Assembly (NCBI GenBank): GCA_965212225.1
Contig: OZ243106.1
Coordinates: forward strand, 2,891,374 to 2,955,373
Source: Phycisphaerales bacterium
Lineage (GTDB): Bacteria; Planctomycetota; Phycisphaerae; Phycisphaerales; UBA1924
DNA: 64,000 nucleotides
Direction: 5' to 3'
The position numbers were made by a program, and so were the translations under genes. Of the stretch, positions 7,849 through 61,505 are shown one piece after another; the first letter of the stretch is position 1; every line of letters starts with the position of its first letter. The notes beneath the pieces are model-generated. The model worked only from the letters and a program-made list of their open reading frames with translations. It ran no database searches and was not told the origin of the DNA.

Positions 7849-7975
7849 GGTGTCGTTCCTTCTCATCCGCCCGGGCGGGCGGGGGTGCTACTCGCGACCG
7901 GTGGATTTCGGCTCGCTGAGAATCACGGGTTGTCCGGACGGTCCGTCCGGTGGAAATCCTTCGACGGTTGCTGGA

Positions 7976-8374
7976 TCAGTGGACGTAGGCGAGAACCTCG
8001 CCGCCGACCTTCTTTTCGCGGCACTGGCGATCGCTGAGCACGCCCGACGAAGTCGAGACGATTGAGATGCCCAGACCCTGCAGCGGGCGGTCGAGTTCGT
8101 CGACCTTCTTGTAGACGCGGCAGCCGACCTTCGAGACGCGCTCGATGCGGTTGATGATGGTCTCCCCGCGCGAGCCGTACTTCAGTCGGATGCGGATCTG
8201 GCCCTGGCGGCCGTCCTCGATCACGTCGAAGCCCTCGATGTAGCCCTCGCTCTCAAGGATCGACGCGATACCGCGGCAGACCTTGCTGTTGAGGACCAGG
8301 CAGTCCTTGACGTGGTTCCGGGTGGCGTTGCGGATGCGGGTGAGCATGTCCGCGATCGGGTCGTTCATCGCCAT
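7976..8374 (-). CDS. rpsH: 30S ribosomal protein S8
   Basis: MNDPIADMLTRIRNA N-terminus; synteny. Confidence 0.97.
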   Translation of the reverse strand: MAMNDPIADMLTRIRNATRNHVKDCLVLNSKVCRGIASILESEGYIEGFDVIEDGRQGQIRIRLKYGSRGETIINRIERVSKVGCRVYKKVDELDRPLQGLGISIVSTSSGVLSDRQCREKKVGGEVLAYVH

Positions 8375-37719: not shown

Positions 37720-37853
37720 CTCTACGCCCACCGGGCCAATGCACCACCCAAAGGTAGGTATTTGCTTTCCGTTTGGAATGGTCCAGTTTGCGCGGGGGAA
37801 CCCGCGCTGCCCATGCTACGATCACCGAGTTGTCCGATCGCGAAACCATAAAG

Positions 37854-40800
37854 ATGACCGGCAACGGATCGCGTGCTCGTATCCTCGTGGAAAACGATGA
37901 TGCCGCGACCGCGGACGCTATCGCGCGGGTGCTCCGCGAAAGCGGCTTCGCGGTCGAGTCCGTCGCAGAACGATCCGAACCGGCAAACGGTACCAACGCT
38001 GTCATCGTCGAATGCGACCAGCCTGAGGCCATGCGTCGGGCAGGGAAGACGCGGCAGGAATCCGAGGACCGCTGGGCGTTCGTCCGCCGCGCCACCGGTG
38101 TCGGGTACTGGTACTGCGACCTGCCATTCGATGCGCTCCACTGGGACGAACACGTCAAAGCCCACTTCCACCTGCCGGCCGACGCCTCCGTCACCATCGA
38201 TACCTTTTACGATCGCTTACACCCGGACGACCGGCAGCGCACCCGCGACGCTATCGCGCACGCGATCGAGCATCGCACCATCTACGACATCGAGTACCGC
38301 ACCGTCGATCCGGACACCGGCGCTATCAAGTGGATCCGCGCCATCGGCCGCGCGGACTACGCCCCCGACGGCACTCCCAAGCGCTTCGACGGCGTCACGA
38401 TCGATGTCTCAAACGGCAAACGGGCCTCGGAGCAGGCGGCTGAAGCCGCAGACCGTCTGACGCTGATCGCTGACGCGATGCCGGCACTGATCGCCTACGT
38501 CGACGCCGACGCCCGCTACCGGTTCAACAACCGAGGGTATGAACAGTGGTTCGGCCACGACCGCGACGATATCCACGGCCGCCTGGTGAGCGAGGTAGTC
38601 GGCGACGACGCGTACGCCGTCATCGAACCGCATGTCCGAAAAGCCCTGGACGGAGAGCGCGTCAGTTTCGAGGCGGAGATCCCATTCTCCGATGACCAGC
38701 GACGGACCGTGCACTGCGACTATGTTCCTGACGAACGCGCCGACGGATCCGTCGCCGGGTTCTACGCCCTGATCACCGACATCACGCTGCGCCGCCAGCA
38801 CGACAGGGCCAGCGCCCGTCTCGCCGCCATCGTCCAGTCCTCGAGCGACGCGATCATCAGCAAGACGCTCGACGGCGTGATCGAGTCATGGAACGAGGGC
38901 GCAGAGCGGATATTCGGCTACACCGCCGAAGAAGCGATCGGTCGCCCGGTGACCATGCTGATACCCGAAGATCGATTGGGCGAGGAAACCCAGATCATCG
39001 GCGCCATCCGCACCGGTCAGCGCATCGAGCACTACGAAACAATCCGCCGGCGGAAAGACGGCTCGCTGGTGAACATCTCGCTTACCGTGTCCCCGGTGCT
39101 CGATTCGAACGGTCGCATCATCGGCGCTTCGAAGATTGCGCGGGACATCACCGAGCGCACGCGATTCGAGAACGCCCTCCGTGAGAGCGAATCCCGGTTC
39201 AAGGCCATGGCCAACACCGCACCGGCCATGCTGTGGGTCACCGACGCGGACGGAACCGCGACTTTCCTCTCTCGCGGCTGGCATGAGTTTACCGGTCGAC
39301 CGCAGCACGGCGGCCTCGACGCCGACTGGTTCGAAGCGGTGCATCCGCAGGACCGACGCGAGTTCCAGCGGTCGCTCCTCGACGCGAACCGTCGGCGGGA
39401 AGCGTTCTCGATCGACTACCGGTTGCGACGCCACGACGGGATGTACCGGTGGTGCATAGCGCACGGCAGGCCTCGATTCGACAACGACGAGCGGTATCTC
39501 GGCTTCGTCGGCTCCGTGATCGATGCGCACGAACGCAAGAAGGCCGAGCTCGAACGGAGCGCGCAATCGCGCATCCTCGAGATGATCGCGAGCGAGGAGC
39601 CGCTCGCTGAGATCCTGAACGAGCTCGTCCGCTCCGCCGAGCAGCAGATACCCGGCACGACCGGATCGATCCTCCTGCTTGATCCCGATGGCAAGAGACT
39701 CCGTCACGGCGCCGCACCAGGGCTCCCCGACGCTTACAACCGCGCCATAGACGGCGTCGAGATCGGTCCGGCTGTCGGATCCTGCGGCACCGCGGCATAT
39801 CGTGGCGAGCGTGTCATCGTTGAAGACATCCAATCCGACCCACTCTGGGCAGACTATCGGAAGACCGCAGAAGCACACGGCCTCCGCGCCTGCTGGTCGC
39901 AGCCCATCCTGTCCGCCGACGGTCGAACCATCGGCACCTCCGCGATCTACTTCAACGAACCCAAGCGCCCGATAGATGACGAACTGACGACGCTGCAGGC
40001 CACCGCGCAGTTCGCCGGACTCGCCATCGATCGACATCGCACACTCCAGGCCCTGCGCGACAGCGAAGCGAGGTTCCGCGCATTCACCACCGCGACGTCA
40101 GACGCCGTCTATCGGATGAACGCGGACTGGACCGAGATGCAGCAGCTTCAGGGACAGCAGTTCATCCCCGACACGCTCGAACCGAGCAGGTCCTGGCTCC
40201 AGAGGTACGTGTACGCCGACGATCGACCCGGCGTCCTCGAAGCGATCGACCGCGCGATCCGAACGCGTGAGATGTTCGAGATGGAGCACCGCGTCATACG
40301 CCTGGATGGCTCCATCGGCTGGACGCAGTCTCGCGCCGTACCGATCTTCGACGATCAGGGAACCATCCAGGAGTGGTTCGGTGCCGCGAGCGATGTGACC
40401 GCGCGGAAGCAGGCTGAGGAATCGCTCGAACAGCAGCGACGGCTCTACGAGGGCGTGCTGACAACCACGCCCGACCTCGCCTACATCTTCGACCTCGACC
40501 ACCGTTTCATCTACGCCAACGAAGGCCTCCTCAGGATGTGGGGAAAGACCTGGGATGAAGCGATCGGGAGGAATTGCCTGGAACTCGGATACGAACCGTG
40601 GCACGCGGAGTTGCACGACAAGGAAATCGAGAGAGTCGTGGCCACGAAAACGCCCATCCGCGGGGAAGTACCCTTCACCGGGACCGCGGGCCGTCGAATC
40701 TACGACTACATCTTCACACCGATCCTGAACGACGACGGTGAGGTCATCGCTGTCGCGGGCACAACTCGCGATGTCACCGACATGAAGCTCGCCGAGGAGG

Positions 40801-42974
40801 AGATCCGCGAAGCTCGCTCACGCCTGGAGTCCACCCTCGCCGCCGCAGAGATCGGCACGTGGGAATTCGACATCGTCAAGAATGCCGTGGGGGCCGATCG
40901 AAACCTGGCATTCCTGTTCGGCATGACCACCGAGGAAGCCGACCAGGCACCGGTGGAGCGTTATCTTGAGGCGATTCACGCAGAAGATCGCCCGCGGGTT
41001 GAGCGGTCCATCGCCCGCGCGATCGAATCCGAAGACACCTACGAAGCCGAGTACCGCGTCGTTCCGAGTCCCGGCCAACCCGTTCGCTGGGTGGTCGCGC
41101 GCGGTCGCGTCGAGCGCGATCCCGACGGGACCCCCGTCCGCCTCCCGGGCGTAGTCGTAGACATCACGGAACGAAAGCGTTTCGAAGAAGCGCTTCGCGA
41201 GAGCGAAGATCGGTTCAAGGTGATGGCGAACGCCGCCCCGGCAATGCTCTGGGTCACCGCTCCGGACGGTTCGGCGACCTTCCTGTCACGCGGCTGGTAC
41301 GAGTACACCGGCCAGACCGAACTCGAGGTCGATGGTTTCGGCTGGCTCGAAGGAGTACATCCCGACGATCGGGAACATTCCCATCGCATCTTCGAGGAAG
41401 CGAACGCGAATCAGGACCCGTTCTCGCTCGACTATCGGCTCCGCCGAGCCGACGGCCAGTACCGGTGGTGTATCAGCGCGGGCAAACCGAGTTTCGATGA
41501 AAACGGACGGTTCCTGGGGTACGTCGGATCCGTGATCGATGTCCACGAACGCAAGCAGGCCGAGACCGCCTTGCGCGCCGCTCACGATCAGGTCAAGCAA
41601 GCGCGTGACTACGCCGAAGCCACCCTCCGGACCTCGCCCGTGCCGCTGCTCGTCCTCGAGAGCGATCTTCGGGTGAGTTCTGCCAACGAGGCCTTCTACG
41701 AGATGTTCGACATGGGGCCGGACGACACCGAGGGCCGCTTCCTCCACGAACTCGGCAACCGCGAATGGGACATCCCCGAACTCCGCGAGCTGCTCGGAAA
41801 AGTCCTTGAGCAATCCGACGGCTTCCAGGGCTTCGAGGTCGAGCCGCACTTTGAAACCATCGGAACCCGCTCCATGCTCCTCAACGCGCGTCTTATGGAC
41901 AACGAGGAGGGAGAACCGGACCGCGTCGTGCTGGTGATGGAAGACATCACCCAGCGACGAGAGCACGAGGAGCGCATGGCGACCGTGATGGCCGAACTGA
42001 ACCATCGCGTCAAGAACACTCTGGCCGTCGTCGACGCGATCGCCAGCCAAACGCTGCGCCACGCAAACAGTCTGAACTCGTTCAAGAAAAGCTTCGGGGA
42101 GCGGCTCCGTGCCATCGCGAACGTCCACAGCCTCCTGACCGGCACCGACTGGACGGGATGCTCTCTCGAAGAAATCGTGCGGAGCGAGATCGATCCGCGC
42201 CGCGCCTCGCCGAATCAAGCATCGATCCGCGGCCCCGCGCTCACGCTCTCGCCGAAGCAGTGCCTGGCGCTCCACATGGTCGTCCACGAACTGGCCACGA
42301 ACGCCATGAAGTACGGTGCGCTCAAGGGCGAGTCCGGACACATTGATATCGCGTGGGAAACGCAAAGCCGCGACGGGGTCCGCTGGCTCAAGTTCGAGTG
42401 GCGGGAGCGATGCGAAGGGAATCTGACCACAAGCGGCGAACCCGGCTACGGCAGCAGCCTGATCGAGCAGACCGTGAACTACGAACTGCGAGGTGAGTTG
42501 GAGAAAGAGCTCGCTCCGAGCGGATTGACATGCACCATCAGCTTTCCGCTCTCCGCGCATGAGCTCCCCGTTCCCGAGAGTCCGTCCGGAGCAACACTCC
42601 AGACGGATTCCACCGAATCGAAACCGCGCGTGCTGGTCGTCGAAGACAACGGCACCATCGCGCAGGTGCTGGTCGACGAACTGGAAGAAATGGGCGTTGA
42701 CGTGGTCGGCCCGGCCAACACACTCGAGAAGGCGATGCAACTGGTTGAAGGGAAGCCCCCCGCCGCCGCGCTCCTCGACGTCGACCTCGACGGAACGAAG
42801 GTATATCCCCTCGCCCGCCTGCTGCGAGAACGCCAGGTGCGTTTCCTTCTACTCACGGGCTACGACAAGGCGGACCTCCCCGAAGACCTTCGGGAGTCGA
42901 CGATCCTCGGCAAACCAATCTGTCCCGACGAACTCAAGGCCATGCTCGGCCAAATCGGGCTGCACTCGCGGTGA
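37854..42974 (+). CDS. giant hybrid sensor kinase: truncated receiver-like N-terminus, multiple PAS/PAC modules, GAF, HWE/HisKA_2-type kinase core, C-terminal receiver
   Basis: Repeated PAS/PAC signatures (e.g. IISKTLDGVIESWNEGAERIFGYTAEEAIG) and a GAF segment (GSILLLDPDG..CGTAAYRGERVIVEDI). H-box ELNHRVKNTLAVVDAIASQT and HELATNAMKYGAL are typical of HWE kinases. Receiver RVLVVEDNG...LLDVDLDG...KP. ATG 37854 chosen; ORF opens at 37773. Confidence 0.9.
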   Translation: MTGNGSRARILVENDDAATADAIARVLRESGFAVESVAERSEPANGTNAVIVECDQPEAMRRAGKTRQESEDRWAFVRRATGVGYWYCDLPFDALHWDEHVKAHFHLPADASVTIDTFYDRLHPDDRQRTRDAIAHAIEHRTIYDIEYRTVDPDTGAIKWIRAIGRADYAPDGTPKRFDGVTIDVSNGKRASEQAAEAADRLTLIADAMPALIAYVDADARYRFNNRGYEQWFGHDRDDIHGRLVSEVVGDDAYAVIEPHVRKALDGERVSFEAEIPFSDDQRRTVHCDYVPDERADGSVAGFYALITDITLRRQHDRASARLAAIVQSSSDAIISKTLDGVIESWNEGAERIFGYTAEEAIGRPVTMLIPEDRLGEETQIIGAIRTGQRIEHYETIRRRKDGSLVNISLTVSPVLDSNGRIIGASKIARDITERTRFENALRESESRFKAMANTAPAMLWVTDADGTATFLSRGWHEFTGRPQHGGLDADWFEAVHPQDRREFQRSLLDANRRREAFSIDYRLRRHDGMYRWCIAHGRPRFDNDERYLGFVGSVIDAHERKKAELERSAQSRILEMIASEEPLAEILNELVRSAEQQIPGTTGSILLLDPDGKRLRHGAAPGLPDAYNRAIDGVEIGPAVGSCGTAAYRGERVIVEDIQSDPLWADYRKTAEAHGLRACWSQPILSADGRTIGTSAIYFNEPKRPIDDELTTLQATAQFAGLAIDRHRTLQALRDSEARFRAFTTATSDAVYRMNADWTEMQQLQGQQFIPDTLEPSRSWLQRYVYADDRPGVLEAIDRAIRTREMFEMEHRVIRLDGSIGWTQSRAVPIFDDQGTIQEWFGAASDVTARKQAEESLEQQRRLYEGVLTTTPDLAYIFDLDHRFIYANEGLLRMWGKTWDEAIGRNCLELGYEPWHAELHDKEIERVVATKTPIRGEVPFTGTAGRRIYDYIFTPILNDDGEVIAVAGTTRDVTDMKLAEEEIREARSRLESTLAAAEIGTWEFDIVKNAVGADRNLAFLFGMTTEEADQAPVERYLEAIHAEDRPRVERSIARAIESEDTYEAEYRVVPSPGQPVRWVVARGRVERDPDGTPVRLPGVVVDITERKRFEEALRESEDRFKVMANAAPAMLWVTAPDGSATFLSRGWYEYTGQTELEVDGFGWLEGVHPDDREHSHRIFEEANANQDPFSLDYRLRRADGQYRWCISAGKPSFDENGRFLGYVGSVIDVHERKQAETALRAAHDQVKQARDYAEATLRTSPVPLLVLESDLRVSSANEAFYEMFDMGPDDTEGRFLHELGNREWDIPELRELLGKVLEQSDGFQGFEVEPHFETIGTRSMLLNARLMDNEEGEPDRVVLVMEDITQRREHEERMATVMAELNHRVKNTLAVVDAIASQTLRHANSLNSFKKSFGERLRAIANVHSLLTGTDWTGCSLEEIVRSEIDPRRASPNQASIRGPALTLSPKQCLALHMVVHELATNAMKYGALKGESGHIDIAWETQSRDGVRWLKFEWRERCEGNLTTSGEPGYGSSLIEQTVNYELRGELEKELAPSGLTCTISFPLSAHELPVPESPSGATLQTDSTESKPRVLVVEDNGTIAQVLVDELEEMGVDVVGPANTLEKAMQLVEGKPPAAALLDVDLDGTKVYPLARLLRERQVRFLLLTGYDKADLPEDLRESTILGKPICPDELKAMLGQIGLHSR
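39147..39548 (+). repeat. internal PAS-module duplication, copy 1 (within kinase gene)
   Basis: Residues ITERTRFENALRESESRFKAMANTAPAMLWVT... align without gaps to copy 2, with 84 of 134 residues identical by hand count. Confidence 0.85.
41160..41564 (+). repeat. internal PAS-module duplication, copy 2 (within kinase gene)
   Basis: ITERKRFEEALRESEDRFKVMANAAPAMLWVT...VGSVIDVHERKQAE; see copy 1. Confidence 0.85.
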
Positions 42975-46491: not shown

Positions 46492-47079
46492 TCAGCGACG
46501 ACGACGAACCGCCGCGAGACCCGCGAGACCGAGCAGACCGGCGGCACCCGGCGTCGGGATGATCACCGCGTACGTCCCGAGTACCTGCGCCGACGAGAGG
46601 TCGTCGACCGTATCAGCCGGGAAGTACAGGTTGCCACCCGCCGGAGCGTTCAGCATGTCCGCGTACTCGTTCGGGTCGAGCGTCCAAGTGCCCGAACCGG
46701 TGAAGGCGAGCGAACCCGCCGTGAAGGTGACGGTGATGTCCGTCGACCAACTCCACATGTTCAGGCCGGGATCGGTCCCCCCTCCGCCACGGAAGAGAGC
46801 CGGGCTGTTGTCGGCCGGGTTCTCCGCGTTCGTGATATCTCCCGCGACGAGAGGCGCCGAAAGCGCGCTGCCCGCTCCGCCGTAGAAGTTCTCAAAGTAC
46901 ACGCCAGTGGTATCGCTGCCCGACGCGTTGACCAGCGAAACACCGTTCGTCGCGCTGATAGTCACCTGGTTCGGAACCGACAGATCCACAAGCAACAGGT
47001 GATCGGCCTGAGCGACGCCCGCAAGCATCGACAACGAACCACCGGCGCAGAGCGCCAACTTCCAAGAAGTCTTCGACAT
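46492..47079 (-). CDS. secreted PEP-CTERM-type sorting-signal protein
   Basis: ATG 47079 with GGAGAAGGA RBS and signal peptide MSKTSWKLALCAGGSLSMLAGVAQA. C-terminus IPTPGAAGLLGLAGLAAVRRRR has the P-x-P motif, TM helix and Arg cluster. The upstream 87 codons of ORF 46492..47340 are rejected. Confidence 0.8.
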   Translation of the reverse strand: MSKTSWKLALCAGGSLSMLAGVAQADHLLLVDLSVPNQVTISATNGVSLVNASGSDTTGVYFENFYGGAGSALSAPLVAGDITNAENPADNSPALFRGGGGTDPGLNMWSWSTDITVTFTAGSLAFTGSGTWTLDPNEYADMLNAPAGGNLYFPADTVDDLSSAQVLGTYAVIIPTPGAAGLLGLAGLAAVRRRR

Positions 47080-47403
47080 TTCCTTCTCCTCTTTCCTGAC
47101 TCCGTGTAGCCGCTGTGCAGGCGGCGGCGAACCCCGCAAAGTCGCGGATCGCCTCATGCAAACTACTCCGAAGCCTGTTCCGATCGAAACACGAACTCGA
47201 AAGAATCTGTGAATCCTGCAGTTGAAGCACGACCGACTTAGGCATTCATACTTGCTCTCCACCCCGTTTCGGGCAGCCCGCGTCGATGAGCGCTCGCCGC
47301 CCCTGTCATCCCCAACCGCGATAGCTCCGCCATCCGCCACGCCCAGCGCACAATGGCAATCCCGGTCATCGCAGGACTTCAGTCGGGGTCCGCACGCCCG
47401 CAG

Positions 47404-52303: not shown

Positions 52304-53410
52304 TCAACGCCTGCGTCGCGCAAACGCCAGACCGCCGAGCCCGAGCAGCGCCGTCGCGCCCGGAGCCGGGACCAGCGTCATCCGGTACGCCCGGATCTCG
52401 CCGTCGATCAGCGCCGTGCCGACGATCGTGCCGTCCTCGGCGATACCGAGCGCGGACGAGCTCGTGTTCATCGAGATGTCCCAGCCGCTGTCGGCGGGGA
52501 TCAGGTCCTGCAGGCGATACGTCTGATCACCGTCGTACAGGAACGGTACCGCGAACTGCCCGCTCCCGATGCCCACGACCCAGCCGTCCGAGTTCACGCC
52601 ACGCGCGCTCGCCATCGACGTCCCCGCCGGCAACGGGATCTCCTGGCTCGCGCCGCGACCAGCGCTCCAGATGAACGGCGTCGAGCCGGACTGGTTGAAC
52701 GAACTCGAGCCGACCACATGCCCGGCTTCGCTGATGTCAAACGCGATCGTGCCGTTGTCGCCCGGCAGGGCCGGCACCTCGGTCAGCGTGCCGTTGTTGA
52801 TGTTGTAGAGCAGGCCAACGTTGCGCGAGAGCATGTTCGGATCGGTGCCGTTTCCGACCGCGAAGCCCGCGTTGTTCACCCGAAAGGCCGTCGTCATCGA
52901 GGCGCCGCCCGCGGTCGTCGCCGTGATGCGGTTCACCGCTCCGTTGTTCCAGTACGCCGCGACCTCCAGACTGCCCCCGCCGAGCGAGCCGACCACGAAG
53001 CCGCCGTCGTTCACATCGTTGGCGCGTCCAACGCCCAGTCCGTCCATCGAGAGCTGCGTCAGCGAACCGTTCGTCCACTGCAGCGGGATCGCCCCCGAGC
53101 CGAAGAAGGTGTCCGCGCCGACACCGACCACCACGCCGCTGTCGTTCGCACCGTTCGCCACGCCGTACGGCTTGCCCGCGGCGTTCGGAAGCGCCGTCAG
53201 TGCCGATCCGGGGTTCGCGAAGAAAGGCGTGTTGGTCGTGCCCGCCCCCCGCCCGAACGCCACCCCGCCCGGCGAAACCCCGAAGCCCTGCGACGCAAAG
53301 TCCCCGCTCTGCACCAGCCCCAGATCTTCGATCTGGTACACCGGAGCCGCCACCGCCGCCGAAGCACCCAGCCCCGCGGCGAACAGCACTGCAAACCCAT
53401 TCCTGATCAT
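52304..53410 (-). CDS. HAF-repeat extracellular protein with PEP-CTERM sorting signal
   Basis: Signal peptide MIRNGFAVLFAAGLGASAAVA. At least six repeats of the type A.GVN..G.VVG (ANGANDSGVVVG, ANDVNDGGFVVG, AFRVNNAGFAVG, AFDISEAGHVVG, ARGVNSDGWVVG, ALGIAEDGTIVG). C-terminus LVPAPGATALLGLGGLAFARRRR. Confidence 0.85.
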   Translation of the reverse strand: MIRNGFAVLFAAGLGASAAVAAPVYQIEDLGLVQSGDFASQGFGVSPGGVAFGRGAGTTNTPFFANPGSALTALPNAAGKPYGVANGANDSGVVVGVGADTFFGSGAIPLQWTNGSLTQLSMDGLGVGRANDVNDGGFVVGSLGGGSLEVAAYWNNGAVNRITATTAGGASMTTAFRVNNAGFAVGNGTDPNMLSRNVGLLYNINNGTLTEVPALPGDNGTIAFDISEAGHVVGSSSFNQSGSTPFIWSAGRGASQEIPLPAGTSMASARGVNSDGWVVGIGSGQFAVPFLYDGDQTYRLQDLIPADSGWDISMNTSSSALGIAEDGTIVGTALIDGEIRAYRMTLVPAPGATALLGLGGLAFARRRR

Positions 53411-53635: not shown

Positions 53636-54022
53636 CTACCGCCCTACAAACTCCAGTTCCAAGAACCGCGCGATGTAGTCCACCAGGCTCATCGCCTCGG
53701 GGATCTGCGGGTTCGAGGTCGCGCCCATCGGCTCGAAGCGCATCCCCTTGAAACGAACCACCGCGTCCTCGACGCTTAGCCCGTACTGCAGCGCCAGACT
53801 CATCGCGCGGCAGTACGCCTGGCACATGCCGCTGATCGTCGAGCCCTCCTTGCTCATCTTCAGGAACAGCTCGCCCGGCTTGCCGTCCTCGTGCAGGCCG
53901 ATCGTCAGGTAGCCCTCGTGCTTGCCGATCGAGAACTTGTGCGTGAGCGAGCGGCGGGTCTGGGGCAGCGAGCGGCGGGTGGTCTCGGCGGCGGCGGTGG
54001 ACATCGACGAAGGTCTCCTCAA
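53636..54022 (-). CDS. stand-alone TSCPD-domain protein (class II ribonucleotide reductase C-terminal-like), cysteine-less variant
   Basis: LTHKFSIGKHEGYLTIGLHEDGKPGELFLKMSKEGSTISGM...MSLALQYGLSVEDAVVRFKGMRF matches the TSCPD-domain pattern from memory. Confidence 0.65.
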   Translation of the reverse strand: MRRPSSMSTAAAETTRRSLPQTRRSLTHKFSIGKHEGYLTIGLHEDGKPGELFLKMSKEGSTISGMCQAYCRAMSLALQYGLSVEDAVVRFKGMRFEPMGATSNPQIPEAMSLVDYIARFLELEFVGR

Positions 54023-54130: not shown

Positions 54131-55015
54131 TCAGCCCGCGCCCAGCCACATCCACCCCGCCTGCGCCAGCGCCACCACCCCGATCATCGAGGCCATGGCG
54201 ATCCGGCGCGTGCGTCCCGCTCCGGGGTCCAGCCCCAGCACCGCCAGCAGCACGCCGATGATCAGCAGCATCACGTCCGGAAGCAACGCGCCGAAACCGG
54301 GCACGTAGGGTCGGCCCGACAGTTCGAGCGCAATCGCCTGCGACCGCTGGCCGGACCCCCACTCCGGCTGAGCCATCGCCCCACCGACGATCCGCGTGAT
54401 GTTCGCGCAGCCGATGGCGATCCCGGTCGCGATGACCGCGCCGGTCGCCACCGTCGCGACATCGCGCTGGCGCAGCGCCCAGACGATCAGGTGCGCCGAG
54501 ACCAGCCCGAGCGCGACGAGCGCCGAGGCGCCGTCCAACACCGCCCAGCCGATGCACACGCCCGATACAACGCCGAGCAGACCGACCAAGGCGTCCGAGC
54601 CAGTGCGCGGGGCATCACCCGATCGGCGAGCGCGGTCCTCTTCGCTGTTGACCACCCACCACACCGCGAGCGCGAGCAGAAGGAGCAGTTGCCCGTTGAG
54701 CGCGTCGACGCGACCGACCAGACCGGCTCCGCCGAGGATAGCGACCAGCCCGGCCAGCACGCCGACGCCGAGGCGCCCGCCGGTGACCGCACTCTTCGCG
54801 AGCGCGACCAGCAGCGCCAGCACCATCGGCGCGACGATCAACTCCGAAGCGCCGATCGGTACGGCACCTTTACCAATGCTCAGGGCCGCCGCGCACGAGG
54901 CGGAAACGCCGAGCACGACAATCGGCGCGCCGCTGCTGCGAACCGATGCACCAGCACGCTGGGACATCGCGGCGAAAACGAGCGTGGTCAGGATGGCCAG
55001 AGAAAGCGAAAGCAC
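54131..55015 (-). CDS. hypothetical polytopic membrane protein (about 8 TM), last gene of the SecA-like operon
   Basis: Alternating roughly 20-aa hydrophobic segments and short charged loops. GTG start 44 nt after the SecA-like stop, same strand. The opposite-strand ORF is Arg-rich junk. Confidence 0.6.
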   Translation of the reverse strand: MLSLSLAILTTLVFAAMSQRAGASVRSSGAPIVVLGVSASCAAALSIGKGAVPIGASELIVAPMVLALLVALAKSAVTGGRLGVGVLAGLVAILGGAGLVGRVDALNGQLLLLLALAVWWVVNSEEDRARRSGDAPRTGSDALVGLLGVVSGVCIGWAVLDGASALVALGLVSAHLIVWALRQRDVATVATGAVIATGIAIGCANITRIVGGAMAQPEWGSGQRSQAIALELSGRPYVPGFGALLPDVMLLIIGVLLAVLGLDPGAGRTRRIAMASMIGVVALAQAGWMWLGAG

Positions 55016-55059: not shown

Positions 55060-57030
55060 TTACTCACGCCCCGCGAAGCCCAGCGCGTCATCCAGCCAGT
55101 CATCGCCCTTGAGTACCTCGCGCCGGCGCGAATAGGCAATCGCCTCAGCCCGGCGCTGGGCCGATCGCTGCACCAGCGTGACCAACCGCTGGCCCGCCCC
55201 GCTGCGAGCCAGTTTCGCCAGCACCGTACGCAGGCGCGGGAAGAAGCGGCGGGCCAGTTCGTCGTCCAGACTCGAAAAGATCACCACTTCACCCGGATCG
55301 CCCTGACGCCCGCATCGCCCGAAAAGCTGGCGATCGATCCGCGCCGAAAGTGCTCGCCCGGTGGCGATGACGCACAGCCCGCCGCGCTCGACACTCTCGG
55401 GCGCGAGCCGGATGTCCGTGCCGCGACCGGCCATGTTGGTCGCGACGGTGACGCGCCCCGGCTCGCCCGCCCGCGCAACGATCGACGCTTCCTCCTCGTG
55501 GCGCACCGCGTTGAGCACTTGGTGCTCGACGCCCCGCTCCCGAAGCAGCACGCTCAGTCGCTCGCTCTCAGCAACGCTCGACGAACCGATCAGGACCGGC
55601 TGGCCGGCCGAAGCGCGGCGGGCGGCTTCGGCGGCGGTCGCCTCATCGCGCTCGATTGCGCCGGTAAACGCGCGGTCCTTCACCACGCGCCGGCGCGAGG
55701 GCCGGTGCGTCGGCATCGGGACCACCGGCGAGCGGTAGATCCGCACGAACTCGCGGCGCGATTCGAGCGCGGTGCCGGACATGCCCGCAAGGTACGGGTA
55801 CATGCGGAAGAACCGCTGGAAACTGATCCGCGCAACCGTCCGCTTGGCGCTGCGCACCTCCAGCCGCTCCTTGGCCTCGACCGCCTGGTGCATGCCGTCG
55901 CGCCATGTCCGATCGGGCATCGTCCGTCCGGTACTCTCGTCGACGATGACCACCGCGCCGTCGCGGACGATGTAGTGCTGGTCGCGCGTGTACAGGTGCT
56001 CGGCGCTCAGGGCTTGCCGGATCATCGCGTCCCGGTCACGCGGCAGCCGCGCTCCCAGCGCGCCACCCGAGGCAAGGCGATCGATCTCGCCGTTCGCGCG
56101 GGCAAGGAGCCGGATCTCTCGGTGCGCGCGATCGACGCTGAAGTGTTCCCCCTCCGTCAGTTCGAGCGCGATCTGACGGGCCTGCTCGTAACTCTCTGCC
56201 CCGGAGGCCGAGCCGTCATCGGCGGAGATCAGCAGCGGCGTGACGGCGTCGTCGATGAGCACGAAGTCGGCCTCATCCACGATCGCGCAGTGCAGGCCCC
56301 GCTGCAGCGGCTGGGCGACCGCGCGGGGACCGGCGATGAGCACGCGCAGAGCATGCGAACCGACGGCGCGGACCTCCCCGAGCGCAAGGCGGTCGCGCAG
56401 GAAGTCCGCGGCGAGTTCGCGGCTGGTCGAGTAGGTGACATCGGCCGAGTAGGCACGCCGGCGATCATCGGTTCCTGATTCGCCGGTGATGGCTTCGACG
56501 CCGAACCCCAGTCGCTCCAGACACGGCCGGGTCCAGTCAGCGTCGCGCGAGGCGAGGTAGTCGTTCGCCGTCACGACGTGGCAGCCTTTCCGCGCCGCGC
56601 CGAGCAGCGGAGACGCCAGCAGCGCGCTGAGCGTCTTGCCCTCACCCGTGGCCATCTCGACCACGCAGCCGTCGACCATCGCCAGCGCCGCCGCGACCTG
56701 CTCGCGGTGCGCCAGCAGGCCGGTTGTGCGCCGGGCGACTTCGGTCACGAGCGCGAGCGCGGCGACCCGCTCTTCTACCGGTGCGTCGGCGATGCGAGCG
56801 GTCAGTGTCGACCGGGCGCGCGTGTCGAGGTCGGCGTCGCTCAGATGTGCCATCGCCTCGTGCTCGCGGAGCACGCGCTCGCCGAGCGCGAGGTAGCGAC
56901 GGGTCCGCGGCAAGCGGCTGCGCACGATCGCGCCCGCTTCACGCGCGAGAAAATCCAGTCCCTCCGGCTCGCGAACCGGCTCGATGGGCGATCCCAATGC
57001 CCGCCAGGTGGCATCCATCGCGCGGGTCAT
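55060..57030 (-). CDS. SecA-like DEAD-motor ATPase lacking the canonical SecA C-terminal third
   Basis: EMATGEGKTL (Walker A), AIVDEADFVLIDDAVTPLLIS, VATNMAGRGTDI and LFGRCGRQGDPG are near-canonical SecA NBD1/NBD2 motifs. Start ATG at 57030 overlaps the upstream stop (ATGA at 57027..57030). Upstream 158 codons of ORF 55060..57504 are rejected. The protein ends about 90 aa after the GRQGDPG motif. Confidence 0.85.
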   Translation of the reverse strand: MTRAMDATWRALGSPIEPVREPEGLDFLAREAGAIVRSRLPRTRRYLALGERVLREHEAMAHLSDADLDTRARSTLTARIADAPVEERVAALALVTEVARRTTGLLAHREQVAAALAMVDGCVVEMATGEGKTLSALLASPLLGAARKGCHVVTANDYLASRDADWTRPCLERLGFGVEAITGESGTDDRRRAYSADVTYSTSRELAADFLRDRLALGEVRAVGSHALRVLIAGPRAVAQPLQRGLHCAIVDEADFVLIDDAVTPLLISADDGSASGAESYEQARQIALELTEGEHFSVDRAHREIRLLARANGEIDRLASGGALGARLPRDRDAMIRQALSAEHLYTRDQHYIVRDGAVVIVDESTGRTMPDRTWRDGMHQAVEAKERLEVRSAKRTVARISFQRFFRMYPYLAGMSGTALESRREFVRIYRSPVVPMPTHRPSRRRVVKDRAFTGAIERDEATAAEAARRASAGQPVLIGSSSVAESERLSVLLRERGVEHQVLNAVRHEEEASIVARAGEPGRVTVATNMAGRGTDIRLAPESVERGGLCVIATGRALSARIDRQLFGRCGRQGDPGEVVIFSSLDDELARRFFPRLRTVLAKLARSGAGQRLVTLVQRSAQRRAEAIAYSRRREVLKGDDWLDDALGFAGRE

Positions 57031-59210
57031 CGCGGCGCACCGAAGCGTTGCTGGAACTCCTGGCGCACCGCTCGGAGCAGCTGAGCACCCAGCGGCTTGG
57101 GATCTCGCACGAGTCTCACCTGCACACGCTGACCGACGAACAGGCCTTCCGACGACTCCGGGTCGAGGATGATCTCGAAGATCGGTTCCTTGGAGGCCGT
57201 GCCGCGCTCGTCGGTCGGGTCGGTTTCCAGCGAGCCGCCGGCGTTCAGCCCGAGTGACGAGGACGGCAGGTCGCGCCGTCCTGCTTCGCTGATGGAGACA
57301 ACACTGCCTGCCAGCTGCTGAGCCGGTCGCATGACGGGGCGGATTTCGACGGGTCGGTCCAGCGCCTCGACGGTCAGCGATGCGGCGGACGCTTGGGTGA
57401 CCACCGCGCGGATGCGCAGGTCGGCGGGGTCCACGATCTGACCGAGTTTCTCGCCGCGGGTGACGTACGCGCCGAGTGCGCGGTCGCCCACCGGTGAGAC
57501 CCATATCCCGTCGAAGGGCGCGACGGTCGTGAGTCGTTCGAGTTCGTCGGTCGTCTGCTTGTACTGACGTTCGAGGACGCGTTCACGCTGAGCCATGATC
57601 GAGGCGGTGGCGGGGTCGTCGAGACTCGCAAGCCGCCCGGTGCGCGTCGCCTCAAGGCGGGCTGCGACCTGGATAAGCACGGCTCGGGTCTCGTCGTTGG
57701 ACTGCTCCAGCAGCGGCTGGCCGGCTTGTACCCGAGCCGCGTCGGCTTCGATCCAGTGCACGAAGCCATCGGTACCGGCAAAGACATCGGCGGCGCGGCG
57801 GGCATCGACCACGCCGTCGATCCGTACCCGGTCTGGCAGCGGGATGGCTAGGACGACCAACGCCGCCGCAGCGAACGCACCGCCGGTGAGAACTGCAGCG
57901 CGCCGGCGGGTCCGGGCGATCTCGCCGGCGTTCGCGAGGTACTTAACGAGCTGGGCGAAGGGCGCGGAGAACAGGATGACCGCCGCGACCAGCGCCAGCA
58001 CCAGACCGAGCGCGAAGAGCTGACCGGCGACGAAGCGGATGATGACCAGCAGCACAACGACGCGGTAGATCGCCGAGGACACGCCGTAGAACGCGAGCCA
58101 GTTGCGGGCCCGGGTGGAGCGCGCCGGGTCCTTCGGTTCACGGGCCTTGAAGGCGTATTTCTTGACGTAGTAGTAGATCGCCTCGCGGCTGCGCTGGTAC
58201 AGGTTCGGCGCTTCGAAAAGATCGGAGAGGATGTAGTAGCCGTCGTAGCGCAGCAGCGGGTTGGCGTTGAACAAGATCGTCGTTACGCCCGCCAACAGGA
58301 CGGCGTTGTAGGCGAGCGTGTTGACCTGCGAGCCCACGCCGGTCGAGGCCCAGACCAGGGCGGCGACCGAGGCGATCGCCACTTCGAAGTACATGCCCGC
58401 GCCGTTGACGATGATCCGGCGCCAGCGGCTGCGCAGCGTCCAAGACGAGGAAGCATCGACGTACGGGATCGGGAGCAGCACGATCAGCAGCACGCCCAGC
58501 TCGTGGCACTCGCCGGCGGCGCCGGTCGATCGCTCGCGCTTGCCGAGCACCTTGCAAGCGAAGCCGTGGCCGAGTTCGTGGGCGAGTTTGATCACGATGA
58601 AGGTGCCGATGAGCCAACCGAGGTTGGCCGGCGCGAGCACCTGCGAGGACGCCTCAACGAACTCGCCGGCTCGGCGTCCGACGGCGAGCAGCGCGGTGAT
58701 CAGCAGCGCGAGCCAGGCCATCGCGCCCCAGCGCGTGAACAGCGGCGACGCGAGCCACGCCCAGCGATCGAGAAAACCGTCGGGGTCGACGAGCGGGAGC
58801 TGCACGAACAGGAAGCTGCGCAGGCGTCCCTTGATCTCACGCGCGGTGCGGCGCCTGCCGCGACGGAGCAGGGCCTCGGCGTCGGCGGGCGCATCGGCGC
58901 TGAGCAGGTTGTTCGAGTAAAGCTGACCGAGGACCTGCACGGCTTCGCCGCGGGTCGGGGCGTGGTCGCCGATGACGCGCTCGCACTCGGCCAGAGCGTC
59001 TTCGACCGTGCGCGAGCCGTCGAGCAGGCCGACGAAGCGGTAGGCGCTCTCGGAGATGCGGTAGTACTGGCTGGACGCGGCATCTTCTATGACGAACCAC
59101 AGCCGGCCCCGGAAGCGCTGGCGGGTGACATCAACGCCGACCCGAAGGCGCGGTTTGAGCGGGGCGAGGCGGTACCATGAGTCGTGCGATGTGCGGCGCT
59201 CGGTCGTCAT
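57027..59210 (-). CDS. M50-family (site-2-protease-like) zinc metalloprotease fused to a C-terminal HlyD-type membrane-fusion domain
   Basis: HELGHGFACK (HExxH) and FNANPLLRYDGYY (NxxPxxxxDG) in a polytopic core. C-terminal 300 aa has an MFP pattern (VFAGTDGFVHWIEADAARVQAGQPLL..coiled coil..VAPFDGIWVSPV). ATG 59210 is 2 nt after the upstream TAG; a GTG at 59219 would overlap it by 7 nt. Confidence 0.82.
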   Translation of the reverse strand: MTTERRTSHDSWYRLAPLKPRLRVGVDVTRQRFRGRLWFVIEDAASSQYYRISESAYRFVGLLDGSRTVEDALAECERVIGDHAPTRGEAVQVLGQLYSNNLLSADAPADAEALLRRGRRRTAREIKGRLRSFLFVQLPLVDPDGFLDRWAWLASPLFTRWGAMAWLALLITALLAVGRRAGEFVEASSQVLAPANLGWLIGTFIVIKLAHELGHGFACKVLGKRERSTGAAGECHELGVLLIVLLPIPYVDASSSWTLRSRWRRIIVNGAGMYFEVAIASVAALVWASTGVGSQVNTLAYNAVLLAGVTTILFNANPLLRYDGYYILSDLFEAPNLYQRSREAIYYYVKKYAFKAREPKDPARSTRARNWLAFYGVSSAIYRVVVLLVIIRFVAGQLFALGLVLALVAAVILFSAPFAQLVKYLANAGEIARTRRRAAVLTGGAFAAAALVVLAIPLPDRVRIDGVVDARRAADVFAGTDGFVHWIEADAARVQAGQPLLEQSNDETRAVLIQVAARLEATRTGRLASLDDPATASIMAQRERVLERQYKQTTDELERLTTVAPFDGIWVSPVGDRALGAYVTRGEKLGQIVDPADLRIRAVVTQASAASLTVEALDRPVEIRPVMRPAQQLAGSVVSISEAGRRDLPSSSLGLNAGGSLETDPTDERGTASKEPIFEIILDPESSEGLFVGQRVQVRLVRDPKPLGAQLLRAVRQEFQQRFGAPR

Positions 59211-59212
59211 CG

Positions 59213-61132
59213 CTACCACCAGAGTCGCATGCGCAGCCAGTCGGCGAGATCGCGGAACAGCACGCCGCCGAGGTTCGTTCGACCGGTGACGATGCGGGCC
59301 TCGCCTCCCATGCCCGGGCGCAGCCAGTCGGGCGGGTCGATCAGACGCACGCGCACGCGGAACACGTTGCGACCATCGACGACCTCGGCGACCGGCGTGA
59401 TCCGGTCGACTTCGAAGGCGATGCGCCGGTCGGGGTACGACGCGGTAGCGAGCCGTCCGGTCTGGCCGACTTCGACATCGGCGATGCGCGATTCGGGCAC
59501 GCCGACCTCGGCGTAAAGGCGCGACAGGTCGGCGATCTCGAACAGCAGTTGCCCGGTCTGGACCGGCGCGCCGACGAGGCGGTCGATGTCGCCGGAGATG
59601 ACGGTGCCGGAGATCGGTGCGACGAGGCGGGCGCGCTCGAGTTGCTGTTCCAGCAGTGCAACGGTGGCCTCGGTCTCCTCGGCGCGTTTCAGGGCGATGG
59701 CGGCTTCGGCGAGTTTGCCTTCCGAGCGGGCCTTGTTGGCCTCGGTCCGCGCGGACGCGGCTGCGGCTTCGTTGGCGGCGAGTTGGAGAGCGATTTGCTC
59801 GGTGGAGAGCGTCGCGAGGACGGATTCACCGGCCGTGACGCGCTGGTCCACTCGGACCTCAACCGAATCGATGAAGCCGTCGAACGGGGCGGGCACGACC
59901 TGACGCTGGAGCGGCGCGATGCTGAACGCGCCTTTCGCTCGCTCGGGGGCGGGGACGACAATCAGGGCGAGCACGGTCAGGGCGACTGCCGCGGCCGCGA
60001 GCTTGATCCAGGTGTGGGTCGGTCCGAGCACGCCGGCGAGCGTGCGGCGCGCGCTGTCGGCGATCTTCGCGCCGATCCAGCGGTCGCGCTCGCGGGCGTC
60101 GAGCAGGCGGGGCGTCACAAGTTCGCAGAGCACGCGCAGGCCGGCGACCTCGTGATCCTGGAACGGTCGCTCGGCATCGCGCTCGACCAGCAGGACCCCC
60201 ACCACGCGTCCCGCGCTGCGCAGGGGCAGGAGCGTCGCGGCCATGGGGCCCGAGTGCTCGGCGTGGGCGCGGAGGGCGCGGGTGATGACCGGCTGCTCGG
60301 GATCGAGGGGCCAGCGCAACTCCGTGTCCTGATCGAAGCACTCTTCCATCGCGCTGACAATGTCCTGCACGAGACGCATGCGCGTGGAAACTTTCTCGGT
60401 GCCGGAGAGGGCCGCGAGTTTGATGTAGGAACCCCGCGAGGCATCGGCACCGTCGGCCGTCTGGTCATCGCCCTCGGTGGCGACCTGCGGGGCGATGTCG
60501 ATCATGCCCAGCGCGACGCGGTCGAGGTTCAGGCGCGAGGTGAGGTCGTTGACGATGCGATACGCGATCGAGCGGAAACGGTGGAGCGGCGAGACCGCGG
60601 TCGCGATGTCGAGCGCAGCGGTGAGTCGCTCGGTGCGTGCCTGCTCGGCGCGCTCGGCGCGGCGCGACTGGCGCAGCGCGGGGACGAGCGTGAGCAGCTC
60701 GAACCTGTCGCGCAGGGCGCGGGCCTGGGCCGGCTCCACATAGGGGAGCAGTGCGGCGAGGTACAGGTTTCCGGGCGCTTCGGGGAGCGGCGCGGCGACG
60801 ACGGTCGCGCGCATGGGTCCCTGGGCGGTGTCGAGGTTGAGGTCCCGCTGGAACCACTCGTGGTCGGATGTGTGGAGTTCGATGGCGGCTTCGGCGGCGC
60901 GGTCGGCCCACGCCGCGGCGGTGGCGGCTTCGGGCCAGATGGCGATCACATCCGCGCCGCGGGCATCGGGGTTGACGCGGACAACGGCGACGGCGGATGC
61001 GCCGCAGGTGCGTGCGGCGAGCGAGGCGAGTTGATTGAAGTATGCGTTGGGAGCGCCCTCGAAGTCGACCAGTCGCTGCACATCTTCGGGCAGTTGGTCG
61101 GCGGTCTGGGATGGGGCGTGGTACTGGCTCAT
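59213..61132 (-). CDS. GAF-domain-containing HlyD-family membrane-fusion (periplasmic adaptor) protein
   Basis: About 370 cytoplasmic residues with two GAF-like segments (e.g. ATLLPLRSAGRVVGVLLVERD), TM WIKLAAAAVALTVLALIVV, then MFP lipoyl/coiled-coil/barrel (VPAPFDGFIDSVEVRVDQRVTAGESVL...LVAPISGTVISGD). Confidence 0.8.
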   Translation of the reverse strand: MSQYHAPSQTADQLPEDVQRLVDFEGAPNAYFNQLASLAARTCGASAVAVVRVNPDARGADVIAIWPEAATAAAWADRAAEAAIELHTSDHEWFQRDLNLDTAQGPMRATVVAAPLPEAPGNLYLAALLPYVEPAQARALRDRFELLTLVPALRQSRRAERAEQARTERLTAALDIATAVSPLHRFRSIAYRIVNDLTSRLNLDRVALGMIDIAPQVATEGDDQTADGADASRGSYIKLAALSGTEKVSTRMRLVQDIVSAMEECFDQDTELRWPLDPEQPVITRALRAHAEHSGPMAATLLPLRSAGRVVGVLLVERDAERPFQDHEVAGLRVLCELVTPRLLDARERDRWIGAKIADSARRTLAGVLGPTHTWIKLAAAAVALTVLALIVVPAPERAKGAFSIAPLQRQVVPAPFDGFIDSVEVRVDQRVTAGESVLATLSTEQIALQLAANEAAAASARTEANKARSEGKLAEAAIALKRAEETEATVALLEQQLERARLVAPISGTVISGDIDRLVGAPVQTGQLLFEIADLSRLYAEVGVPESRIADVEVGQTGRLATASYPDRRIAFEVDRITPVAEVVDGRNVFRVRVRLIDPPDWLRPGMGGEARIVTGRTNLGGVLFRDLADWLRMRLWW

Positions 61133-61256: not shown

Positions 61257-61505
61257 TCAGGCGGCCTGCAGGCCGACGCTGTCGCGGAGGATTCGAATCG
61301 CTTCGTCGTGGTGGCGCTCGACCTGCTCGGCGGTCATGTCGACGGCACCGGCGATCTCGGCATCGGTCATCTGCTCGGCGTAGCGGAGCAGGATGATGAG
61401 TCGTTGCACTCCGCTAAGCGACTTGAGCATCGCGTTTCGGAGCAGTTGCGTCGGTTCGGCACCGGTTGAGGCGTGCTCGACGGATGGCGGTGAGTGTGGG
61501 GCCAT
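61257..61505 (-). CDS. small sigma-70 region-4-only HTH protein
   Basis: 82 aa. LSGVQRLIILLRYAEQMTDAEIAGAVDMTAEQVERHHDEAIRILRDSV matches the region 4.2 pattern of ECF/sigma-70 factors, but regions 2 and 3 are absent. Confidence 0.6.
   Translation of the reverse strand: MAPHSPPSVEHASTGAEPTQLLRNAMLKSLSGVQRLIILLRYAEQMTDAEIAGAVDMTAEQVERHHDEAIRILRDSVGLQAA

Follow-up and report, generated by a model that had tools for sequence, protein, structure and literature searches.

A predicted leader-binding, M50 protease and HlyD adaptor fusion in a Phycisphaerales bacterium and its candidate role in the export of giant LEPR-XLL proteins

The 64,000-nt stretch of DNA analyzed here (the window; Phycisphaerales bacterium, assembly GCA_965212225.1, contig OZ243106.1, positions 2,891,374 to 2,955,373) encodes on its minus strand a 727-amino-acid (aa) protein, M50-HlyD, whose single chain combines a predicted leader-binding domain, a predicted intramembrane zinc protease and a predicted periplasmic adaptor. 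The reading that we favor, with moderate confidence, is that this chain is part of a leader-guided trans-envelope exporter that is driven by a SecA paralogue and dispenses with an ATP-binding cassette (ABC) transporter. In such an exporter M50-HlyD would read the leader of its cargo through a RiPP recognition element (RRE; RiPP, ribosomally synthesized peptide with post-translational modifications), remove that leader through the M50 domain and connect to the outer membrane through the HlyD domain. The evidence that carries this reading is the domain architecture, the predicted topology, the conservation of the catalytic motifs, the gene order, the lack of a conserved ABC, resistance-nodulation-division (RND) or major facilitator superfamily (MFS) partner, and a genomic and phyletic coupling to proteins with the LEPR-XLL motif. 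Coordinates are those of the window, residue numbers are those of the 727-aa protein, and coordinates preceded by C1 are those of the genome. The gene and its parts are the following.

57027..59210, minus strand: whole gene of the RRE (PqqD-like)-M50-HlyD fusion protein, 727 aa (list of open reading frames (ORFs), translation, GC content at third codon positions (GC3) of 0.85, full-length homologues of 41-96% identity).
58896..59153, minus strand: predicted cytoplasmic PqqD/RRE-like winged-helix domain, residues ~20-105 (Pfam PqqD at E 9e-4, beta3-alpha3 topology in the AlphaFold2 (AF2) model, Foldseek match to the TbiB1 RRE).
57831..58742, minus strand: predicted polytopic M50/site-2-protease-like membrane core, residues ~157-460, with 7 transmembrane (TM) helices and a re-entrant beta-hairpin (NCBIfam daptide_HExxH, hydropathy, AF2, 3b4r fold match, positive-inside count).
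58566..58580, minus strand: HELGH, the predicted zinc-binding and catalytic motif, residues 211-215 (translation; invariance in homologues).
58239..58268, minus strand: NANPLLRYDG motif, residues 315-324, with D323 as the predicted third zinc ligand (translation; invariance in homologues).
57030..57830, minus strand: predicted periplasmic HlyD-type adaptor domain, residues 461-727, made up of a lipoyl domain, an alpha-hairpin at 506-558, a beta-barrel and a C-terminal helix (Pfam HlyD_3, profile matches to EmrA and MacA in the Protein Data Bank (PDB), Foldseek).

The reading frame is open from 57027 to 59219, with the likely ATG start at 59210 and the stop codon at 57027-57029. Because GC3 is high along its entire length (0.85 overall and 0.68-0.91 per 100-codon block, while overlapping frames lie near 0.5 and the genome has 68% GC), we regard the gene as a genuine coding sequence. 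Its three-part architecture had been proposed from the DNA letters and ORF translations alone, in what we call the sequence-only reading, and was borne out by Pfam, NCBIfam, AF2 and Foldseek, while translation confirmed the HELGH and NANPLLRYDG motifs named there. The N-domain, which had been put at about 190 aa, is rather about 155 aa long and has a PqqD/RRE-like fold. In an AF2 model of the whole protein, made from a 30-sequence alignment (predicted local distance difference test (pLDDT) 81.9; a separate model of residues 1-465 had a pLDDT of 83.6), this domain has the topology beta3-alpha3, with strands at 26-33, 36-43 and 48-52 followed by helices at 54-61, 69-83 and 87-99. A Foldseek search with the N-terminal 465 residues matched the lasso-peptide RRE TbiB1, which was solved with a leader peptide (prob 0.92-0.99; target TM-score (TMt) 0.52-0.66), and the modelled N-domain is RRE-like and predicted to bind a leader.

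The C-terminal domain has a true membrane-fusion-protein (MFP) fold, as the sequence-only reading had held. Pfam HlyD_3 matched residues 562-644 with a score of 29.4, above the gathering score of 22.2, and HlyD_D23 scored below its own; in the AF2 model the last TM helix leads into a lipoyl-like domain, then the two-helix hairpin (506-558) and a beta-barrel, with a helix at the end. Foldseek returned MexA, MacA, AcrA and EmrA for this part (E 4e-11, prob 1.0, TMt ~0.6), and a PDB search with the family sequence profile returned EmrA (2.7e-7), MacA and a marginal PqqD match (E 0.82). Among 30 homologues of 41-79% identity, Pfam detected PqqD in 25, M50 in 18 (E<=1e-3) and HlyD_D23 in 15, which is consistent with the family being a divergent branch of M50. 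For the core itself the strongest profile was NCBIfam NF041824, the daptide-type intramembrane metalloprotease, which spans both the N-domain and the M50 core (residues 34-418, E 2e-43); at 148.8 bits against an equivalog cut-off of 300, the protein is, by this profile, a homologue rather than a member of the daptide protease family. Since the PDB profile search returned only adaptors and the marginal PqqD match, and no site-2 protease, the protein is tied to that class by its motifs, by the NCBIfam profile and by a weak fold match.

The predicted topology places the two motifs where an intramembrane protease would have them. The AF2 model contains seven long membrane helices, the last at about 435-457. 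HELGH lies at the cytoplasmic end of the hydrophobic segment 191-210, inside the helix 194-229, and is followed by a beta-hairpin at 237-252 that is the counterpart of the re-entrant loop of site-2 proteases. The second motif, of the form NxxPxxxxDG, falls at a helix break, with helix 295-315 stopping at N315 and helix 323-332 beginning at D323, so that both motifs, which the sequence-only reading had expected within the membrane helices, stand at the cytoplasmic ends of predicted membrane helices. Because lysine and arginine pile up in the predicted inner loops (216-265, 333-369 and 428-437, with RTRRR preceding TM7) and the three predicted outer loops hold 0-1 of them, hydropathy and the positive-inside count fit a topology with the N-terminus in, 7 TM helices and the C-terminus out, which would turn the active site toward the cytoplasmic leaflet and put the adaptor in the periplasm. 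The motifs in membrane helices and the re-entrant beta-hairpin are shared with classical site-2 proteases (3b4r, RseP, SpoIVFB), but the accessory domains of the fusion are an RRE and an MFP domain rather than PDZ or CBS domains, and there are three extra TM helices.

In two sets of homologues (n=30 and n=29) that range from Planctomycetota to Proteobacteria, H211, E212 and H215 are invariant, as are N315, N317, P318, L319 and D323. Because these residues are invariant over such a range, the protein appears to be under selection as an enzyme. The same observation bears on the suggestion that the system is a tripartite efflux pump for a substrate other than protein, such as a lipid, a polysaccharide precursor or a small molecule, with the M50-like domain serving as a degenerate transporter scaffold. 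Adaptors and an outer-membrane efflux protein (OEP) are indeed parts typical of efflux pumps; however, invariance of the catalytic H, E, H and D across phyla is not what a degenerate scaffold would lead one to expect, and both the RRE and the preprotein-binding domain of the SecA-like partner described below point to a polypeptide substrate. We regard this explanation as extremely unlikely.

The M50-HlyD gene is the middle one of a tightly packed minus-strand row, in which its two immediate neighbors are the following.

59213..61132, minus strand: upstream partner, GAF-HlyD adaptor, with a cytoplasmic GAF region (~370 aa), one TM helix at 372-399 and a periplasmic adaptor region, as predicted (Pfam GAF, HlyD_D23 and HlyD_3; one hydrophobic segment).
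55060..57030, minus strand: downstream partner, SecA-like ATPase, 656 aa, with nucleotide-binding domain 1 (NBD1), the preprotein-crosslinking domain (PPXD) and NBD2 (Pfam SecA_DEAD, SecA_PP_bind, P-loop_SecA).

The stop codon of the GAF-HlyD gene is 2 nt from the ATG of M50-HlyD, and the start of the SecA-like gene overlaps the M50-HlyD stop as ATGA; judged by this spacing and overlap, the core genes are predicted to be translationally coupled. The SecA-like ATPase, which the sequence-only reading of the fusion had left unmentioned, keeps the GEGKT, DEAD, GRGTD and GRCGRQG motifs intact and scores below every NCBIfam SecA and SecA2 equivalog cut-off. Profile coverage suggests that it ends soon after NBD2, without the wing domain, the two-helix finger and the C-tail. 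A canonical SecA is encoded elsewhere in the genome (1346-codon frame, C1:1623153), and from its sequence the truncated paralogue is likely to be the motor of the system.

The fusion had been thought unusual for a site-2 protease; it proved instead to belong to a large conserved family. A word-indexed search returned at least 2,878 clusters, nearly all of ~725 aa and aligned end to end, and an exhaustive search of representatives at 50% identity returned 11,035 at E<=1e-3 and 3,605 at E<=1e-30, the latter almost all of ~715-735 aa and again aligned end to end. Species-representative genomes contain more than 553 M50-HlyD loci, a lower bound, in Planctomycetota, Verrucomicrobiota, Lentisphaerae, Alpha-, Beta- and Gammaproteobacteria, Desulfobacterota, Nitrospira, Myxococcales and one metagenome-assembled genome (MAG) of the Flavobacteriales. 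We clustered the neighboring proteins of at least 70 aa in a sample of 80 loci from at least seven phyla. Besides M50-HlyD itself (80), the families recovered were GAF-HlyD (76), the SecA-like ATPase (64), a small HlyD protein of 291 aa (59), a TolC-like OEP confirmed by Pfam OEP (20) and DUF3467 (17), and beyond these six no family occurred in more than 16 of the 80 loci. The commonest order is (OEP)-small HlyD-(DUF3467)-GAF-HlyD-M50-HlyD-SecA-like. The tight coupling to the upstream adaptor that had been noted in the window is general, with GAF-HlyD directly upstream of M50-HlyD in 76 of the 80 loci, and the hetero-oligomeric adaptor ring that had been proposed on that ground is plausible. 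No ABC, RND or MFS transporter and no RiPP enzyme is a conserved neighbor in the 80 loci, and an ABC transporter is absent from the operon in the window as well.

In 17 of the 80 loci (for example at 7677-8063 of locus L003) the DUF3467 gene, whose ~120-aa product has no relative in the PDB by sequence, is flanked by the genes for small HlyD and GAF-HlyD; the product might assist the system as a chaperone or cofactor. Its only copy in the genome studied here lies 230 kb from the window.

A gene set of this kind was described in silico by Kamneva, Poudel and Ward (PLoS One 2015; PMC4452313) as that of a "secondary SecA_DEAD domain protein", exemplified by META1p2402-2399 of Methylobacterium extorquens AM1, and the M50-HlyD fusion is of a kind that has been in print since then. 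[quoted passage not shown] The window resembles their locus in having GAF+HlyD, Peptidase_M50(+HlyD) and SecA_DEAD in the same order, with a canonical SecA elsewhere in the genome, and the phyla match (Planctomycetes, Verrucomicrobia, Proteobacteria, Nitrospirae), but it differs in lacking an adjacent small HlyD/Biotin_lipoyl protein and OEP, for which there are candidates elsewhere in the genome. Our literature search for a follow-up of that study found none, and the RRE domain and the cargo hypothesis presented here go beyond it.

Coupling of cleavage to export, first proposed by analogy with the YydH protease, is kept here as the best reading of the fusion. The analogy itself is weak: the YydH/LiaK epipeptide protease profile, NF058609, matched with 26.7 bits against an equivalog cut-off of 225 (E 4e-6), and the nearest profile is that of the daptide-type RRE-M50 protease, which is also missed at the cut-off level. 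One could nevertheless suppose that the system matures and exports a small RiPP-like peptide, the RRE binding the leader of a short peptide, the M50 domain removing it and the adaptors channeling the product, in the manner of YydH/EpeP or of the daptide MpaP type. The homology of the N-domain and M50 core to the daptide profile speaks for this, as does the weaker YydH/LiaK match, and some homologues are labelled "PqqD family peptide modification chaperone" by the NCBI annotation pipeline (PGAP). EpeP, moreover, has been proposed to combine cleavage of its own peptide with export (PMC10885120). Both profile scores are, however, far under their equivalog cut-offs, and the RiPP M50 proteases (daptide NF041824; EpeP/YydH NF058609; TglG/TmoG) act on short peptides and have no HlyD domain, SecA-like partner or OEP. 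We clustered with blastp-short 3,089 ORFs of 20-75 aa around the 80 loci, a kind of search that the sequence-only reading had itself suggested for leader-peptide genes, and recovered only antisense shadows cast by SecA and further conserved genes. Because no conserved small leader-peptide genes were found, the YydH-like reading is weak. RiPP-modifying enzymes are likewise missing from the conserved neighbors, which do include a SecA-like motor equipped with a preprotein clamp, and the linked genes encode giant LEPR-XLL proteins. Export of a small peptide is, in our judgment, quite unlikely.

Two further genes of the row in the window deserve mention, although their membership in the system is doubtful.

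61257..61505, minus strand: 82-aa sigma-70 region-4-only helix-turn-helix (HTH) protein at the head of the gene row (Pfam Sigma70_r4).
54131..55015, minus strand: 294-aa polytopic membrane protein, encoded immediately downstream of the SecA-like gene (hydropathy), with no Pfam match.

As parts of the system we rejected both, since conservation of the sigma region-4 protein does not extend beyond Phycisphaerales bacterium ac7, a relative at 97% identity (locus L005), and the membrane protein is lineage-specific and seen only in that same locus. The first of them would be the natural output of regulated intramembrane proteolysis, in which the HlyD-like or GAF domains sense a cue and the M50 protease cuts a regulator tethered to the membrane, in the way of RseP and SpoIVFB. 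Catalytic motifs of the site-2 protease type, a GAF sensor domain in the partner protein and the HTH gene at the head of the row in the window are what such signaling would lead one to look for. Beyond the close relative, however, the HTH gene is not retained, no sigma or anti-sigma gene is conserved near M50-HlyD in the 80 loci, and signaling leaves unexplained why a SecA-like ATPase keeps a fixed order with three adaptors and an OEP across phyla. This explanation appears to us very unlikely.

The nature of the cargo is suggested by genes adjacent to the system in other genomes. A same-strand ORF of at least 900 codons ends within 800 nt upstream in 9 of the 51 loci with enough flank, and a giant ORF begins just downstream in 7 of 56. 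These ORFs encode cadherin-like, Big_9, PKD, RTX, calpain and cohesin/dockerin domains, and two with complete N-termini start with ...LEPRxLLS...; NCBIfam NF012209 (LEPR-XLL) matches one of them, the protein of locus L054. Common to 20 N-termini compared across five phyla is the motif F-x-[LF]-E-x-L-E-P-R-x-L-L-S-A-D, which comes after a basic stretch 10-60 aa long. In at least 15 genomes a LEPR gene lies next to the system on a single contig, and the Nitrospira genome has a tandem row of three LEPR genes directly upstream of it.

The association extends to presence and absence. Among 121 genomes of Planctomycetota, M50-HlyD is found in 30, of which 14 have a LEPR match (E<0.01), versus 0 of the 91 without the system (Fisher p 1.9e-10, kinship ignored). 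In the betaproteobacterial order of Accumulibacter (151 genomes), 22 genomes have both, 2 have LEPR only, 9 have the system only and 118 have neither (p 3.1e-17, kinship ignored); of the two LEPR-only genomes, one has a marginal match and the other a match at a contig edge. System-bearing genomes of other phyla have LEPR matches in 19 of 20 cases, in frames of 1,000-28,751 aa, and a LEPR-XLL search of 14 control genomes gave none (0/14). Within the library searched, we found no paper that links LEPR-XLL to the M50-HlyD/SecA-like system or gives LEPR-XLL giants an export route.

Taken with the domain predictions, these data lead us to propose the following mechanism. The RRE/PqqD-like domain would bind in the cytoplasm a short N-terminal leader of the cargo, probably a very large surface protein; the best candidate for this leader is the LEPR-XLL motif behind its basic stretch. 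The truncated SecA-like ATPase, in which the preprotein-crosslinking clamp is kept and the SecY-inserting finger apparently lost, would feed the unfolded chain N-terminus first, and the M50 active site at the cytoplasmic leaflet would cut off the leader. The 7-TM domain may form or line the passage through the inner membrane, and the fused HlyD domain, GAF-HlyD and the small third adaptor would build a periplasmic duct to the TolC-like OEP, with the GAF domain presumably gating the system.

Such a machine would resemble the T1SS for giant adhesins and RTX proteins (HlyB-HlyD-TolC; LapB-LapC-LapE) in its membrane-anchored HlyD adaptor and candidate TolC-like OEP, in the very large, repetitive and often RTX-containing cargo encoded nearby and in the implied one-step export. 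It differs in that the M50-HlyD loci have no ABC transporter and three different adaptors, with an intramembrane metalloprotease and a SecA-derived motor in place of HlyB, and in that the candidate signal is N-terminal (LEPR-XLL), whereas that of the T1SS is C-terminal. The colicin V type of exporter, CvaAB-TolC, is similar to our proposal in that a leader-cleaving protease resides within the inner-membrane export component, works with an MFP and TolC and recognizes an N-terminal leader. In that case, however, a C39 cysteine protease and ABC domains act on the double-glycine leaders of small peptides, while the M50-HlyD proposal involves an M50 protease, an RRE, a separate SecA-like ATPase, the LEPR-XLL motif and giant proteins.

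Several points weigh against a leader-guided exporter of this design. It may call for an M50 domain, whether monomeric or oligomeric, to serve as a protein-conducting channel, and we infer leader binding, the cleavage site, the direction of transport, the composition of the ring and the pore. Two of the three domains of the window's protein do not reach the Pfam gathering score, Peptidase_M50 (PF02163) scoring 21.9 bits against a cut-off of 27.2 and PqqD 20 against 23.4 (E 9e-4), and the top PDB match of Foldseek for the N-terminal 465 residues, the site-2 protease 3b4r of M. jannaschii, is weak (E 0.014, TMt 0.41, root-mean-square deviation 13.7). A strong LEPR match is missing in 16 of the 30 system-positive genomes of Planctomycetota and in 9 of the 31 of the Accumulibacter order, 6 of these 9 having a lower-scoring subtype of M50-HlyD. 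The co-occurrence statistics ignore shared ancestry and horizontal co-transfer; the pattern repeats in unrelated phyla. Finally, some LEPR-XLL proteins have RTX repeats, and the classical T1SS could be an alternative exporter for them.

The organism studied here adds to these difficulties. Only the three core genes, GAF-HlyD, M50-HlyD and the SecA-like gene, are clustered in its genome, and no small HlyD/Biotin_lipoyl protein is encoded in the window. The best small adaptor (291 aa, 34% identity to the family, C1:~3070990-3071863) is unlinked and the best OEP (591 aa, 36% identity, C1:1158274-1160079) lies 1.8 Mb away, both assigned by similarity. The sole LEPR-like N-terminus in the genome belongs to a 1009-aa protein (C1:2850729-2853755) that is encoded 95 kb from the operon and carries a degenerate form of the motif, FEQLERRVLLTGD, which NF012209 matches with 19.3 bits against a cut-off of 17; a custom LEPR hidden Markov model run on the six-frame genome gave the same protein as its single candidate, with E ~1. 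This protein has a cyclophilin domain and is without a Sec-type hydrophobic signal, and Pfam PF07595 (Planc_extracel) has only a sub-threshold match in the genome, at the N-terminus that NF012209 also matches. Because this LEPR-like N-terminus is single, degenerate, weakly scoring and unlinked, the assignment of a cargo in this organism is tentative. The window holds a minimal, dispersed version of the system and is therefore a poorer model than loci that have the cargo gene, the OEP and every adaptor side by side.

The RTX repeats raise a more serious alternative, namely that LEPR-XLL or other proteins cross the inner membrane through a T1SS ABC transporter or Sec, and that the M50-HlyD complex has an accessory role in processing or quality control, trimming, releasing or clearing N-terminal anchors or stalled giants with the SecA-like protein acting as an unfoldase. 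Several linked giants have the RTX repeats typical of T1SS cargo, and M50 proteases are not known as protein channels. A 2026 preprint reports that the Chlorobium chlorochromatii giants Cag_663 and Cag_665 have LEPRxLL N-termini and assigns them to the T1SS; their co-expression cluster includes a "recently acquired" secA, Cag_1676, which may be the SecA-like paralogue, and Kamneva et al. listed one Chlorobi species with a secondary SecA (PMC4452313). Yet what the loci conserve is an OEP and three adaptors and not an ABC transporter, and trimming that is confined to the cytoplasmic face does not readily account for a duct to the outer membrane. We consider an accessory role unlikely and retain the leader-guided exporter as the preferred explanation.

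Two observations on the family and its giant neighbors stand apart from this argument. The lower-scoring M50-HlyD subtype (E 1e-53 to 1e-90; genomes G153, G157, G212, G252, G259 and G260 as well as G029, G033, G039, G042 and others) occurs mostly without a strong LEPR-XLL match in the same genome and may serve cargo with another leader. The giant upstream proteins of locus L076 (65-3505, a Geobacteraceae MAG) and locus L078 (2-3457, Pseudomaricurvus) are 30% identical and share a C-terminal ...LFEYW(I/T)E(N/D)..., possibly a conserved C-terminal element.

Elsewhere in the window, the ORF at 37758-42974 on the plus strand (~1,738 aa) was considered as cargo and rejected, as its product is a hybrid sensor that joins an HWE histidine kinase and a receiver to about eight PAS domains and a GAF domain. 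The minus-strand gene at 53636-54022 encodes a 128-aa protein with a TSCPD domain on its own (Pfam PF12637, E 7.6e-15), a domain that is otherwise found as the C-terminus of class II ribonucleotide reductases. Two other minus-strand genes, at 52304-53410 and 46492-47340, encode proteins with PEP-CTERM-like sorting tails (VPAPG.../IPTPG..., a hydrophobic helix and RRRR), the first of which also has a DUF3466-like repeat region.

Many environmental and symbiotic bacteria encode LEPR-XLL giants, which range from 1,000 to more than 28,000 residues, and the adjacency of these giants to this gene set and their co-occurrence with it in several phyla yield a concrete, testable hypothesis. In its broadest form, which we put forward tentatively as a possibility rather than an expectation, the system would be a distinct and widespread secretion pathway of diderm bacteria: the RRE would read the LEPR-XLL leader, the motor-only SecA paralogue would drive a chain of up to tens of thousands of residues N-terminus first through or along the site-2-protease-like domain, the M50 site would cut off the leader, and three HlyD adaptors would deliver the chain in one step to a TolC-like channel. 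The exporter would thereby combine unexpected parts, namely a SecA paralogue without the SecY-engaging parts, a site-2 protease, a leader reader of the RiPP type and three adaptors. If this is true, an intramembrane protease has been recruited as a translocon and leader peptidase in one, the LEPR-XLL motif gains a function, the system could become a tool to export very large recombinant proteins, and the pathway would be the export route so far missing for bacterial proteins of the largest class.

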